A DNA stretch of 57,443 nucleotides from a plasmid. The stretch lies in the sequence record NZ_CP149754.1; one strand, written 5' to 3'. The notes below the pieces were generated by a model that was not told the origin of the DNA, ran no database searches, and saw only the letters and a program-made list of their open reading frames with translations. Below, piece after piece: positions 47,131 to 56,156 of the stretch (position 1 is the first letter of the stretch; each line of letters starts with the position of its first letter). The position numbers and the translations under genes are program-made.

Positions 47131-47471
47131 GTAAAACTAGAAAAGCAATAGAAATGTTATATAGAGATAAATGTACTATAGTTGAGTATCAGCCAATTAA
47201 AGACCCTGTAACAAAACGAACTAACAATAAAGAAGTGATTGTATTAGAAAATCAACCATGTAAACTTTCATATAAAAATATAGTTTCTGCTACAGAAGGG
47301 AAATTAGCTAAGCTAGAGCAAACTATTAAACTCTTTATATCTCCAGATATAGAAATTAAAGCAGGTTCAAAACTTATTATAAATGATAAAGAGTATGTAA
47401 GAAGTGGAGAATCAGCTATATATCCAAATCATCAAGAAATAATACTTGAGCTATTTAAGGATAAAGCATAA
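47124..47471 (+). CDS. head closure / head-tail joining protein
   Basis: In synteny; translationally coupled. Confidence 0.45.
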   Translation: MVSKTRKAIEMLYRDKCTIVEYQPIKDPVTKRTNNKEVIVLENQPCKLSYKNIVSATEGKLAKLEQTIKLFISPDIEIKAGSKLIINDKEYVRSGESAIYPNHQEIILELFKDKA

Positions 47472-47761
47472 TGGCTAGATGGGGCAGTGTTGATTTTAGA
47501 GAGTTTAAAAGAGTTTGTAAAAAGATGGAGAAGCTTACAAAGATTGATTTAGATAAGTTTTGCAAGGATGCAGCAAGAGAATTAGCAGCACGATTACTTG
47601 GGAAAGTAATTAGAAGAACACCAGTTGATACAGGATTCTTAAGACAAGGATGGAATGGAGTGGCTTACGCTAGGTCGCTTCCTGTGTATAAACAAGGAAA
47701 TAATTATATTATAGAGGTTGTTAATCCGACTGAATATGCCTTAACACAATGGGGCATATAA
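47471..47761 (+). CDS. HK97 gp10-like tail component, 5' exon (product truncated without splicing)
   Basis: ...PVDTGFLRQGW...NPTEYA matches the gp10-family core. The ORF terminates prematurely and the remaining C-terminal motif is encoded 1.1 kb downstream. Confidence 0.55.
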   Translation: MARWGSVDFREFKRVCKKMEKLTKIDLDKFCKDAARELAARLLGKVIRRTPVDTGFLRQGWNGVAYARSLPVYKQGNNYIIEVVNPTEYALTQWGI

Positions 47762-48880
47762 AACCCAGCAAAATCGGTAAACGCTAAGTGTAATAGTGTT
47801 ACATTATAAAGTAGGTAGAATATGGACATAGAATAACTCTTGATTTATAATGTATAAAAGAGGTGATTTTATGGCAAAATTTTTAGATATTACAGGAAAA
47901 AAATTTGGAAGGCTAAGAGTCATTAAATTTTCTAAAGAGATAAAAAGTGGTAAAAGAAATAGAAAATATTGGTTATGTAAGTGTGATTGTGGAAATTTCA
48001 AAGAAATAAGAACTGACTCTTTAACTAGTGGCTTAGTACAATCTTGTGGATGTTTAAAAAAAGAACAAGATAAATTAAATTTAACAGACAAATACCAATT
48101 TAAAAAGAAATATAAGGTTCAAAATAAAAGACTTTACAGTATATGGAAGGGTATAATATCTAGATGTACAGATAAAAATAATAAAAGATACAATAGATAT
48201 GGTGAAAGGAATATAATTGTGTGTGATGAATGGTTTTGCTATGATAATTTTGCAAATTGGGCATTGAGTAATGGATATTCAGAGAAACTTACAATTGATA
48301 GAATAAATAATGAAGGAAATTATGAATCAAGCAATTGTAGATGGGTGGATATAAAGACACAATGTAGAAATAGGTCAACAAATATATTAGTAAAGCATGA
48401 AGAAAAAGAAATTACATTGATAGAGCTTTCTGAAAAAACAGGTATTTCATATTCTTGCTTAAGAAGTAGATATTCTAAGGGATTAGTAGGAAATAAGCTT
48501 ATAGAAAAAGTTAAGATTATTGAAGAAAGCAGAGCTAAGTTATCTATTGAGGATGTAAAAGAAATTAGAAAAAAGTATTCTGATGGATATACAATAAAAC
48601 AACTAAGTGAAATATATCCTGTAACATATTCATCTATATCAAATATAGTCCATAGAAGAACATGGAAAAATATTTAATTAATTATATATGCCAATACCGA
48701 GGAAAACCTATAGATTGCGAATAGGCTATAGGTTTCCGTAGAGCGTAGAGAGTGAATAAATATAATCTCTCCAAGAGTGCTGGGCAACTAAATAAAGTTT
48801 ATTTTGTTGATGATGTACGCCGAACTTATAGGAAACTATAAGAGCTAGAGGATAAAAAGCCTTTAGGATAACAAAATGCA
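47736..48880 (+). mobile_element. putative group I intron (boundaries +/-5 nt) carrying a homing endonuclease ORF
   Basis: Splits the gp10-like gene. Contains a free-standing HEG with its own RBS. The 3' ~200 nt is non-coding and stem-rich (AACCTATAG...CTATAGGTT). A splice joining U47735 to the nucleotide after G48878 restores the frame. Confidence 0.5.
47850..48677 (+). CDS. AP2-domain HNH-type homing endonuclease with C-terminal HTH (NUMOD-like) modules
   Basis: GRLRVI...WLCKCDCGNFKEIRTDSLTSGLVQSCGC followed by YSIWKGIISRC...YNRYGERNIIVCDEW...LTIDRINNEGNYESSNCRW. Confidence 0.7.
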   Translation: MYKRGDFMAKFLDITGKKFGRLRVIKFSKEIKSGKRNRKYWLCKCDCGNFKEIRTDSLTSGLVQSCGCLKKEQDKLNLTDKYQFKKKYKVQNKRLYSIWKGIISRCTDKNNKRYNRYGERNIIVCDEWFCYDNFANWALSNGYSEKLTIDRINNEGNYESSNCRWVDIKTQCRNRSTNILVKHEEKEITLIELSEKTGISYSCLRSRYSKGLVGNKLIEKVKIIEESRAKLSIEDVKEIRKKYSDGYTIKQLSEIYPVTYSSISNIVHRRTWKNI

Positions 48881-49033
48881 TATGTTGAGTTTGGGCATAG
48901 AACTAAAAGTGGTAAGGGATGGGTTAAAGGACAACATTTCTTAACAATTTCAGAGATGGAACTACAAAGCCAAATTGATAAGATTATAGAGAAAAAGTTA
49001 TTAATATTACTTAAAGGAGTATTTGATGCTTAA
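48881..49033 (+). CDS. 3' exon of gp10-like gene (YVEFGHRTKSGKGWVKGQHF...)
   Basis: The frame is open only from 48872 and has no start codon or RBS. Encodes the C-terminal motif expected to follow NPTEYA. Its stop overlaps the ATG of the next gene. Confidence 0.5.
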   Translation, partial: YVEFGHRTKSGKGWVKGQHFLTISEMELQSQIDKIIEKKLLILLKGVFDA

Positions 49034-49463
49034 TAATATAATTGATGGAATATCTATTAAATTAGATAAAACATTTGGAGAGAGTTATACAATTTATAGT
49101 GAAGATGTGGAGCAAGGTATAAATGAACCTTGTTTTTTTATTTGCCCTCTAAATCCAAGTAAGACATCTTATCCAAATGGTAGAACACTAAAAAAGAACT
49201 CTTTTGATGTACATTATTTTCCTCGTTCAAAAGATAAGAGTTTTGAAATAAATGAGGTAGCTGAGATGCTACTTGAGGAATTAGAGTATATAGAAATTGA
49301 TGGAGATTTAGTTAGAGGCACAAATATGAATTTTGAAATTATAGATAATGTTCTTCATTTCTTCGTTGATTATAACTACTTCACTATAAAAAGTAATGAT
49401 ACAGAAAAAATGAATGATGTTGAATTATTTGGTGGTTTGAAGAGAGGTGATAATTTTGAATAA
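49026..49463 (+). CDS. tail completion / minor structural protein
   Basis: 146 aa, in synteny before the sheath gene. Confidence 0.45.
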   Translation: MLNNIIDGISIKLDKTFGESYTIYSEDVEQGINEPCFFICPLNPSKTSYPNGRTLKKNSFDVHYFPRSKDKSFEINEVAEMLLEELEYIEIDGDLVRGTNMNFEIIDNVLHFFVDYNYFTIKSNDTEKMNDVELFGGLKRGDNFE

Positions 49464-52726: not shown

Positions 52727-53220
52727 GTTTTAGATTAACTATATGGAATGTAAATTTTGTATAAACAGGAGTAGTCCAACCACCAGCAACCTTGTTTTAG
52801 ATTAACTATATGGAATGTAAATATTTCATTCATACAATATTCGTGCAATGTAGGATGAGTTTTAGATTAACTATATGGAATGTAAATCAAATAGTCCAGC
52901 GAATTTAATTCATCAGTATAAACAATAGTTTTAGATTAACTATATGGAATGTAAATAACTTTTCGAGAGTCTCAATTTACAGAAGAAATTGGAGTTTTAG
53001 ATTAACTATATGGAATGTAAATTGTAATTAAGTTAGATATGGCAAAAGAAATAGCTATGCGTTTTAGATTAACTATATGGAATGTAAATTTTAATGATTC
53101 TACAACTCTTACAGACTCAGATGATGTTTTAGATTAACTATATGGAATGTAAATGGGTGGGAGATATGGCAACTATCCACACATGAAATTGGTTTTAGAT
53201 TAACTATGTGGATTCAAAAT
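52727..53220 (+). CRISPR. CRISPR array 3: 8 repeats (variant GTTTTAGATTAACTATATGGAATGTAAAT), 7 spacers (36-40 bp); terminal repeat degenerate
   Basis: Repeats at 52727, 52794, 52859, 52928, 52994, 53061, 53126 and 53192. Conserved leader upstream; hairpin terminator at 53228-53262. Confidence 0.9.
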
Positions 53221-55796: not shown

Positions 55797-56156
55797 GTTT
55801 TATATTAACTAAGTGGTATGTAAATCGTACAGATAGTATTGCATTAGAGGAAAGTTTAAAAGCGTTTTAGATTAACTATATGGAATGTAAATGTTTTTAA
55901 AGCTTCTTCAAGTTGTATTTGTGTATAATGTTTTAGATTAACTATATGGAATGTAAATCCAACTGAATAAACAATAATTTTATCAATTTCTTTAGTTTTA
56001 GATTAACTATATGGAATGTAAATTATTTTACAGATGAACAATTACAATTACTTCTTGCATGTTTTATATTAACTAAGTGGTATGTAAATAAATCAAAAGA
56101 TAGGAATGATAATTTTAAAACTCCAAACTTTTATATTAACAATGTGGAGAAAAACT
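55797..56156 (+). CRISPR. CRISPR array 4: 6 repeats mixing two repeat variants, 5 spacers; terminal repeat degenerate
   Basis: Repeats at 55797 (ATATTAACTAAGTGGTATG type), 55864, 55930 and 55995 (AGATTAACTATATGGAATG type), 56061 (first type) and 56128 (degenerate). Promoter TGGTATAAT at 55759-55767. Confidence 0.9.

Follow-up and report, generated by a model that had tools for sequence, protein, structure and literature searches.

Comparative analysis predicts a mobile, subgroup IA-like group I intron in the gp10-like gene of a phi027-like Clostridioides difficile prophage

Subgroup IA of the group I introns (IA1/IA2) is defined by the extra helices P7.1 and P7.2 between P7 and the 3' strand of P3 (P3'; P denotes paired and J joining segments). 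In the subgroup IA2 introns of T4 td and Twort orf142, P7.1 lies between P7 and P3', the 3' end is of the type ...ACAUAAUG^ (^ marks a splice junction), the open reading frame (ORF) of a homing endonuclease gene (HEG) is looped out of a peripheral helix, and splicing proceeds via a U·G wobble and a terminal G. The element investigated here differs from these introns in having neither P7.2 nor P2, in carrying its ORF in P5a and not in P6a or P9.1, and in interrupting a structural gene and not a gene of nucleotide metabolism. It is located in a 57,443-nt stretch of plasmid DNA (sequence record NZ_CP149754.1), hereafter called the window, which carries a phiC2/phi027-like Clostridioides difficile prophage, and affects a gene of the HK97-gp10 family that has the head-tail adaptor genes on one side and the sheath gene on the other. 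Very probably, this gp10-like gene is interrupted by a mobile subgroup IA-like group I intron that has an endonuclease gene in its P5a loop, and that would splice and home.

Introns in phage genes for capsid, tail, tape-measure and terminase proteins are well documented (PMC2504315, PMC3706429, PMC3984707). Regarding temperate phages of Firmicutes, the Bacillus cereus-group prophage introns TMP-IVS1-3, term-IVS1/2 and that of the tail tube gene (Tourasse & Kolsto 2008, PMC2504315) are, like the window intron, of the IA type and located in late structural genes, where they are inserted in frame at the most conserved motif, have an early in-frame stop in P1 or P2, show co-conversion of flanking exon bases and combine similar ribozymes with different HEGs. 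They differ in their host genes and hosts and are mostly HEG-less, and they do not include the C. difficile gp10 intron. The early in-frame stop halting ribosomes has been described as general for phage introns (PMC2504315). A gp10-like host gene is found for the intron of Staphylococcus phage ROSA, which is placed between ORF049 and a C-terminal gp10 fragment, encodes the 'HNH endonuclease' ORF019, has relatives in phages BE28 and Rosita, and was already included in the 2008 group I intron survey (Table 3; PMC2504315). The ROSA, BE28 and Rosita introns share with the window an HK97 gp10-like host gene, the insertion codon (..YA ^ x ^ YVE(F/Y)G..) and, in the P5 extension, the HEG family, ORF019 being 42% identical to the window endonuclease at the amino acid level. 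The ROSA ribozyme is ~70% identical to that of the window over the 3' core and has the same helices, with P3, P6, P7.1, P9 and P9.1 differing through compensatory changes; however, ROSA is a Staphylococcus siphovirus and the window a C. difficile myovirus, ROSA has a P2 with a GUAA loop where the window intron is without P2, and the window HEG has 268 aa with an extra C-terminal helix-turn-helix (HTH) module as compared to 222 aa in ROSA. Within C. difficile, the IStron CdISt1 of tcdA, which combines a group I intron with an IS605-type element, is likewise IA-type and phenotypically silent on insertion (PMC3984707), but has transposases at its 3' end and many sites, whereas the window element has a homing endonuclease in P5a and one conserved site; an IStron reading of the window element was rejected since no transposase is present.

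The gp10-like gene and the element within it comprise the following predicted features.

47471..47741 (+): exon 1 of the gp10-like (tail-completion / neck) gene; ends with NPTEYA plus the U of a Ser codon; colinear with CDMH1 gp11 and phiC2 p11
47742..48878 (+): group I intron, 1137 nt, excision of which restores a 426-nt ORF
47871..48677 (+): endonuclease gene, 807 nt, 268 aa, in the P5a terminal loop
48879..49033 (+): exon 2; CA completes the Ser codon, followed by YVEFGHRTKSGKGW...; the stop overlaps the next gene (ATG 49026)

The ORF at 47471-47761 encodes 96 aa with the C-terminus ...NPTEYALTQWGI*, the stop lying 7 codons past NPTEYA, and this N-terminal half alone matches Pfam PF04883 (HK97-gp10_like) with 55 bits over profile positions 2-72 of 78. 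The C-terminal third of the gene was found 1.1 kb downstream without a start codon of its own: the frame from 48878 reads AYVEFGHRTKSGKGW... (AYVEFGHRTKSGKGWVKGQHF...GVFDA*, with the stop at 49031-33), and because of an in-frame stop 3 codons upstream and the absence of ATG, GTG or TTG ahead of YVEFG, exon 2 is not translatable alone. When 47471-47741 and 48879-49033 are joined, the result is 426 nt long, exactly as are the intron-less CDMH1 gp11 and phiC2 p11 genes, which are uninterrupted, encode 141 aa and read ...NPTEYASYVNFGHRTKDGKGW...; the joined ORF is identical to CDMH1 at 403/426 nt and to phiC2 at 402/426 nt, and its product at 137-138 of 141 aa. The spliced protein matches PF04883 with 69.9 bits (cut-off 21.4) over profile positions 2-78 of 78, and the gene order agrees with the annotated CDMH1 and phiC2 modules. 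The continuity of the gene is directly apparent in these alignments and, as judged from and confirmed by the intron-less homologues, the two halves are one gene.

In megablast searches against GenBank phages, phiCDKH02 was the one phage colinear with the whole region (96% identity), while CDMH1, phiC2, phiMMP01 and phiMMP03 matched the flanks only, in two pieces. The predicted ligated-exon junction is ...GAAUAUGCCU^CAUAUGUUGAG... (GCCU^CAUAUG), the intron-less site in CDMH1 and phiC2 gp11 being GAATATGCAAGTTATGTAAATTTCGG; the Ser codon is split U^CA and the joined product reads ...NPTEYA-S-YVEFG.... Because U47741 ^ C48879 alone reproduces the intron-less homologues exactly, the 5' junction is placed at U47741. 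Two kinds of alternative junction were set aside. With a 5' junction at U47735 the frame is preserved, but the product lacks the Tyr-Ala of the homologues, and in P1 the partner of U47735 is A instead of G; junctions inside the repeated ATGC, from 47735^48876 to 47739^48880, give ...EYAYVEFG, one residue short, and none of them combines an exon-final U with an intron-final G. The original prediction had recognized a gp10-like gene split by a group I intron-like element of ~1.1 kb with an endonuclease gene, and a C-terminal continuation that lacks a start codon and whose end runs into the start of the following gene; the intron-less homologues, with which it had suggested a comparison, together with the fold and the covariation described below, bear this out, as does its 3' splice site after G48878, which restores the homologue sequence exactly. 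Its 5' junction at U47735 was 6 nt too far upstream, since U47741 matches the homologues and pairs with G in P1.

Genes split around free-standing HEGs exist in T4-like phages, and the GenBank annotation of phiCDKH02 lists separate hypothetical proteins, which would both agree with a free-standing endonuclease gene having split the gp10-like gene without a ribozyme, the halves being made separately and then reassembling. This is extremely improbable given that the C-terminal part has neither start codon nor ribosome-binding site (RBS) and a stop 3 codons upstream, that the boundaries of the insert restore the gene to the nucleotide, and that the 330 nt around the endonuclease ORF form a group I core supported by covariation. 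Of this non-coding sequence, 129 nt precede the ORF on its 5' side and 201 nt follow it.

Fold and comparison thus indicate that the insert is a group I intron interrupting the gp10-like gene, with these assigned parts.

47734..47759 (+): P1 hairpin, 8 bp, exon AUAUGCCU (47734-41) with the internal guide GGGCAUAU (47752-59)
47764..47769 (+): P3 5' strand, CCCAGC
47774..47794 (+): P4 5' strand UCGGUA (47774-79), J4/5 AA, P5 5' strand (47782-84), loop UAAG (47785-88), P5a 5' strand UGUAAU (47789-94)
48681..48700 (+): P5a 3' strand AUUAUA (48681-86), loop UAU, P5 3' strand (48690-92), J5/4 AA, P4 3' strand UACCGA (48695-700)
48701..48737 (+): P6 hairpin, 12 bp, A48706 bulged; present in the minimum free energy (MFE) fold
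48741..48745 (+): P7 5' strand, G-(A bulge)-GCG; its partner CGCC (48818-48821) makes it cross P3 as a pseudoknot
48748..48771 (+): P7.1 hairpin between P7 and P3', a mark of subgroup IA
48779..48784 (+): P3 3' strand, GCUGGG
48785..48809 (+): P8 hairpin; present in the MFE fold
48810..48821 (+): J8/7 AUGAUGUA followed by the P7 3' strand CGCC; aligned to the J8/7-P7 region of Rfam RF00028 in an ORF-less relative
48825..48842 and 48845..48866 (+): P9 with a GAAA tetraloop, and P9.1; both present in the MFE fold
48878 (+): terminal G (omega-G); 3' splice site 48878/48879

The P1 hairpin (RNAfold -11.3 kcal/mol, z -4.7) is closed by the U47741·G47752 wobble at the 5' splice site, and the in-frame stop for ribosomes reading from exon 1 (47759-61, intron nt 18-20) is located within it. 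A P10 of 3 bp can form between AUG 47749-51, just 5' of G47752, and CAU 48879-81 of exon 2. The MFE fold of an ORF-deleted construct (z -5.5) contains P1, P3, P4, P5, P5a, P6, P7.1, P8, P9 and P9.1, the pseudoknotted P7 excepted. J3/4 of the window intron is AAAA, and the conserved 3' end ...GAUAACAAAAUG^ is common to it and its relatives. The sequence fits the guanosine-binding helix P7 with its bulge and the A-rich joining segments, these positions being invariant and partly within the search pattern. Neither P2 nor P7.2 was found in the window intron, and with P7.1 present and P7.2 absent it is best described from its sequence as subgroup IA-like.

P5a was assigned via comparison within the family (the introns L109, L072, L019 and L050). 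A local hairpin, AGUGUAA/UUACAUU (47787-47805), considered as P5, was set aside in favour of the arrangement of long-range P5, UAAG-UAU loop and P5a, which is conserved in these four; the proposed long-range P5/P5a pairing is the weakest part of the fold model. Separately, the heptamer AUAUGCC at 48687-48693 (the P5 3' strand and its neighbours) is identical to the end of exon 1 at 47734-47740 and could compete for the guide (GGCAUAU), although this may be either coincidence or an alternative pairing.

The structure was evaluated on a MAFFT alignment of 29 non-redundant related introns, with ORFs trimmed to 24 nt on each side and the window helices projected on the alignment. Standard pairs occupied 89% of the cells of the proposed structure, as compared to 35-43% with slid partners and 71% in shuffles. 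The covariation score was 0.446, compared with 0.05-0.10 for slid partners and 0.157 for shuffles, of which 0/500 reached the observed value, and changes on both sides were seen in 50/66 pairs. All pairs of P3 (6/6; 99.4% of cells paired), P7.1 (5/5; 98.6% paired) and P9.1 (7/7) changed on both sides, as did 8/12 pairs of P6, 5/7 of P9 and 6 of the outer 7 pairs of P8 (87% paired); the P4/P5 cells were paired in 92.6%. Covariation of this core is hence observed directly in the alignment.

Several points weigh against the proposed intron. P5 of the window copy consists of 2 bp and a C·C mismatch, P5a is the weakest helix (65% paired, with comparison-only support), and P10 has only 3 bp in the window intron as opposed to 6 bp in ROSA. 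P7 is invariant in all 29 introns and, together with part of J8/7, lay inside the pattern by which they were collected, so that covariation is uninformative for it; its first G-C pair is A-U in C. perfringens phage 1181. The Rfam group I model (RF00028, Intron_gpI), a scan with which the original prediction had named as a check, gave no match at the gathering score on the whole window, and none on 47400-49200 at E<=10 or on the 3' half alone; full-length searches of loci L004, L005 and L002 at E<=1 were likewise negative. A 311-nt slice with the ORF-less intron of Arcanobacterium phage TPWB06 (L005) did match model positions 1-253 (E 5e-9), with helix assignments identical to those of the window model, but at 39.9 bits remained under the 50-bit gathering score. 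The Rfam scan thus succeeded on a relative and failed on the window, where the 807-nt ORF in the P5a loop is the likely reason, together with insensitivity of the model to this IA family, and the Rfam negatives are read as model insensitivity and not as evidence against an intron.

These points bear on whether the intron was once functional and has lost splicing, leaving the gp10-like gene as a pseudogene or with a 96-aa product and the prophage defective or managing without the full protein. The missing Rfam match and the weak P5 of the window copy would be in line with such a loss, and splicing, like the activity and the target of the endonuclease, is inferred from sequence. However, all core helices and conserved joining segments are intact, as in the relatives, and the frame of exon 2 is open with 97-98% amino acid identity to the intron-less proteins. 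Phage phiCDKH02 has been reported to be identical to phi027 of strain R20291 (PMC12122855), and phi027, which has the same intron (6 nt apart, none in a helix), is inducible and forms plaques at a high titre of 1e8-1e9 plaque-forming units per ml (PMC11222575). The viability of phi027 with this intron supports splicing, if only indirectly, and a loss of splicing appears very unlikely.

Relatives of the 3' core were detected by blastn in 90 phage records (Staphylococcus, Bacillus, C. perfringens and crAss-like phages), and a 14-nt core motif collected 118 IMG/VR contigs; among these contigs and the phage records, 47/124 matches to this motif are accompanied by both remaining core motifs. Staphylococcus phages ROSA and BE28 have the related intron and endonuclease at the same codon of the homologous gp10-like gene, annotated in BE28 as 'tail completion or Neck1 protein', with the junction ...(D/E)YA ^ I ^ YV(E/N)YGTG, a P1 of GCGAU/GUCGC with U·G and a P10 of 6 bp adapted to their own exons. 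Several IMG/VR phages also have related introns at this codon of gp10-like genes, and exon-adapted P1/P10 pairings analogous to those of the window were seen in ROSA, BE28, L093 and L109. The closest non-difficile relative of the window intron, in the metagenomic phage L109/L120, lies at the very same U^CA position in a gp10 gene that is only distantly related (...MTDYA-S-HVEFGHRTG...). Regarding novelty, no literature mention of an intron in C. difficile phages or phi027 was found, and the words 'intron' and 'endonuclease' are both absent from the phiCDKH02/phi027 paper, which agrees with the original prediction as far as C. difficile phages are concerned; the same codon is nevertheless occupied in Staphylococcus phages, and the ROSA intron was in the 2008 survey (PMC2504315). 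Within the window itself, searches for further copies with two core motifs at <=3 mismatches gave chance-level matches only.

A second site with related introns was observed in the same gp10-like gene, 8 codons downstream of that used in the window, in Staphylococcus-type phages and IMG/VR contigs (L008, L033, L038, L115 and L118). These introns are inserted at ...YGTG-I ^ YA..., exon 2 begins (U)UACGCA..., and P1 is fitted to the site (GGGAU/GUCCC in L115); there are therefore two adjacent homing sites in one conserved motif.

The intron is polymorphic among near-identical phages, being present in phiCDKH02 and absent from the closest phages CDMH1, phiC2 and phiMMP01/03. When the window is compared with phiCDKH02, 6/1137 intron positions (0.5%) and 36/426 exon positions (8.5%) are different; none of the 6 intron differences affects a helix, 48720 being part of the P6 loop, and 5/5 differences in the endonuclease ORF are synonymous, a pattern indicating that the HEG is under selection. 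Of the 23-24 exon differences between the window and the intron-less alleles, 8 fall within 16 nt around the junction (GCCU^CAUAUGUUGAGUUU in the window, GCAAGUUAUGUAAAUUUC in the intron-less alleles), and 8/8 of these clustered positions have the same base in the window as in the flanks of the L109 gp10 gene, a distant gene that carries a related intron. Such a cluster at the junction is the pattern that would be expected from co-conversion during homing, and would also maintain P1 and P10.

Regarding the intron-encoded protein, the true start of the endonuclease ORF is ATG 47871, following the Shine-Dalgarno sequence GAGGTGA, and its stop is at 48675-77. It belongs to PHROG 374 ('HNH endonuclease', E 6e-82) and consists of an N-terminal Cys-rich beta domain, an HNH-like core (D143 R144 ... 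Y151 ... N155 ... N167) and two C-terminal HTH-like modules. In the AlphaFold 2 model (mean predicted local distance difference test score 88), the N-terminal beta domain contains five conserved Cys; it is followed by a helical segment, by a beta-beta-alpha unit made of strands 141-144 and 156-159 and helix 161-166, and by two helical modules. There are more than 3800 homologues, almost none of which has a Pfam domain, and among the window protein and 37 relatives (38 members) the Pfam families AP2, HNH, HNH_3 and NUMOD gave no match at E<=0.1. For the window protein, AP2 (PF00847) gave none even at E<=1, and the C-terminal third gave weak, generic HTH matches only (HTH_23, E 0.006; Sigma70_r4, E 0.014). 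Foldseek of the model against the PDB returned no match at E<=0.001, phmmer against the PDB returned an artificial repeat protein only, NCBIfam models gave nothing over cut-off, and no paralogue was detected in the window by tblastn. The AP2 domain and the NUMOD-like HTHs proposed at first could thus not be upheld; the part of the protein ahead of the HNH-like core is helical in the model.

The relationship to HNH enzymes is a remote one. The family profile matches I-HmuI, an HNH nicking endonuclease of Bacillus phage SPO1 (PDB 1U3E), marginally (E 0.005) over the motif GY..LTIDRIDN.GNY.P.NCRW....EQ..N. Both proteins are intron-encoded in Firmicutes phages, have C-terminal HTH DNA-binding modules and share the motif GY..L.vD(H/R)..g...N...N.RWvt....N with Asp and Asn kept: D143 and N167, invariant in the 38 sequences, align with the Asp of VVDH and the Asn of INVEN of I-HmuI, which are metal ligands in that enzyme. 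The window protein differs from I-HmuI in having no Pfam HNH_3 match, in its Cys-rich, SH3/Tudor-like barrel as N-terminal domain, and in Arg144, invariant in the 38 sequences, at the position of the general base His75; this replacement of the canonical HNH histidine weighs against mobility, as the putative activity is not assured. The invariant Tyr151 is located in the loop between the two beta strands.

It is possible, if unlikely, that the intron splices but has lost mobility, its protein being a degenerate HNH relic that does not cut, or else acting in DNA binding or like a maturase, and its spread being due to ordinary phage recombination. This would accord with the invariant Arg at the general-base position and the lack of a Pfam nuclease domain in the 38 members, and His-Me finger proteins without the His are inactive, the PacI group excepted, in which a loop Tyr functionally replaces the His (PMC5714182). 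Set against it are the size (>3800) and strong conservation of the family with D143, N167 and Y151 retained, the exclusively synonymous differences between the ORFs of the two C. difficile copies, the presence of the same HEG family with an intron at the same site in distant phages, and the fit of the co-conversion-like flanks and of the intron/exon divergence contrast with homing. The relationships within the HEG family are evident from these comparisons, and the encoded protein probably is an active homing endonuclease.

More speculatively, the family could be a large group of HEGs (>3800, with no Pfam model) in which the general-base His was lost and which has the invariant Arg144 and the loop Tyr151, an arrangement for which the restriction enzyme PacI is the sole precedent described to date. 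If active, the protein would be a homing endonuclease with PacI-like, tyrosine-initiated chemistry and with the conserved YAxYVEFG-coding sequence of phage gp10 genes as its target; the resemblance to PacI is a lead, not a finding, and the atypical active site may merit biochemical study.

Upstream of this gene, CUCUU (47835-39) can pair with AAGAG (47856-60), overlapping the endonuclease Shine-Dalgarno sequence. This pairing could occlude the RBS in the precursor RNA, as in T4 intron ORFs.

In the proposed mechanism of a splicing and homing intron, the late transcript would fold into the ribozyme, exogenous guanosine would attack past U47741, held in P1 as the U·G wobble, and the freed exon 1 would attack past G48878, aligned through P10. 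GCC-U would be joined to CA-UAU, giving the 141-aa protein ...NPTEYASYVEFG..., while ribosomes on unspliced RNA would stop at 47759-61, inside P1 and before the catalytic core. In co-infection or prophage recombination, the 268-aa protein would cut or nick intron-less alleles at the YAxYVEFG-coding sequence, and repair would copy the intron plus a few flanking exon bases.

The intron is unannotated in the deposited genomes, although the element type is well known and nothing here changes existing knowledge of group I introns: in the records of phi027 and its relatives, the gp10-like gene appears as a truncated 'hypothetical protein', the endonuclease has an ORF of its own, and the C-terminal part is left without annotation. 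Recognition of the intron corrects the annotation of a medically relevant prophage, phi027 being present in epidemic ribotype 027/176 strains, in which the real gp10-like product is predicted to be the 141-aa protein after RNA splicing. R20291/phi027, inducible and plaque-forming, offers a tractable anaerobe system in which group I splicing and homing of a temperate phage could be studied, and for homing crosses there are intron-plus phages as well as sister phages that lack the intron (phiC2, CDMH1, phiMMP01/03). Standard Rfam scanning misses the whole ribozyme family when the ORF is present, and this family is widespread in Firmicutes and gut phages.

Two further members of the ribozyme family were observed in other host genes. 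In C. perfringens phage vB_CpeS-1181 (L004, 839-3793), the terminase large-subunit gene is annotated as two coding sequences around a 'hypothetical protein', the 3' flank contains a ribozyme core ~76-82% identical to that of the window over P4'-P3' (blastn), and the enclosed protein is unrelated to the window endonuclease (16% identity), which looks like the same ribozyme family with a different HEG. In TPWB06, the ORF-less intron is located at ~2328-2574, at the start of the annotated tape-measure gene, with its last 77 nt 92% identical to the window intron; exon 1 of the tape-measure gene probably corresponds to the 'hypothetical protein' annotated upstream (1114-2358).

Elsewhere in the window, 15 matches to CRISPR-DR14 (RF01327) on the minus strand at 1123-1151, 28526-28818, 52727-53154 and 55797-56089 form short arrays in or beside the prophage, with the largest runs comprising 7 and 5 repeats. 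That prophages of C. difficile, phi027 included, can carry CRISPR arrays is known (PMC11222575).

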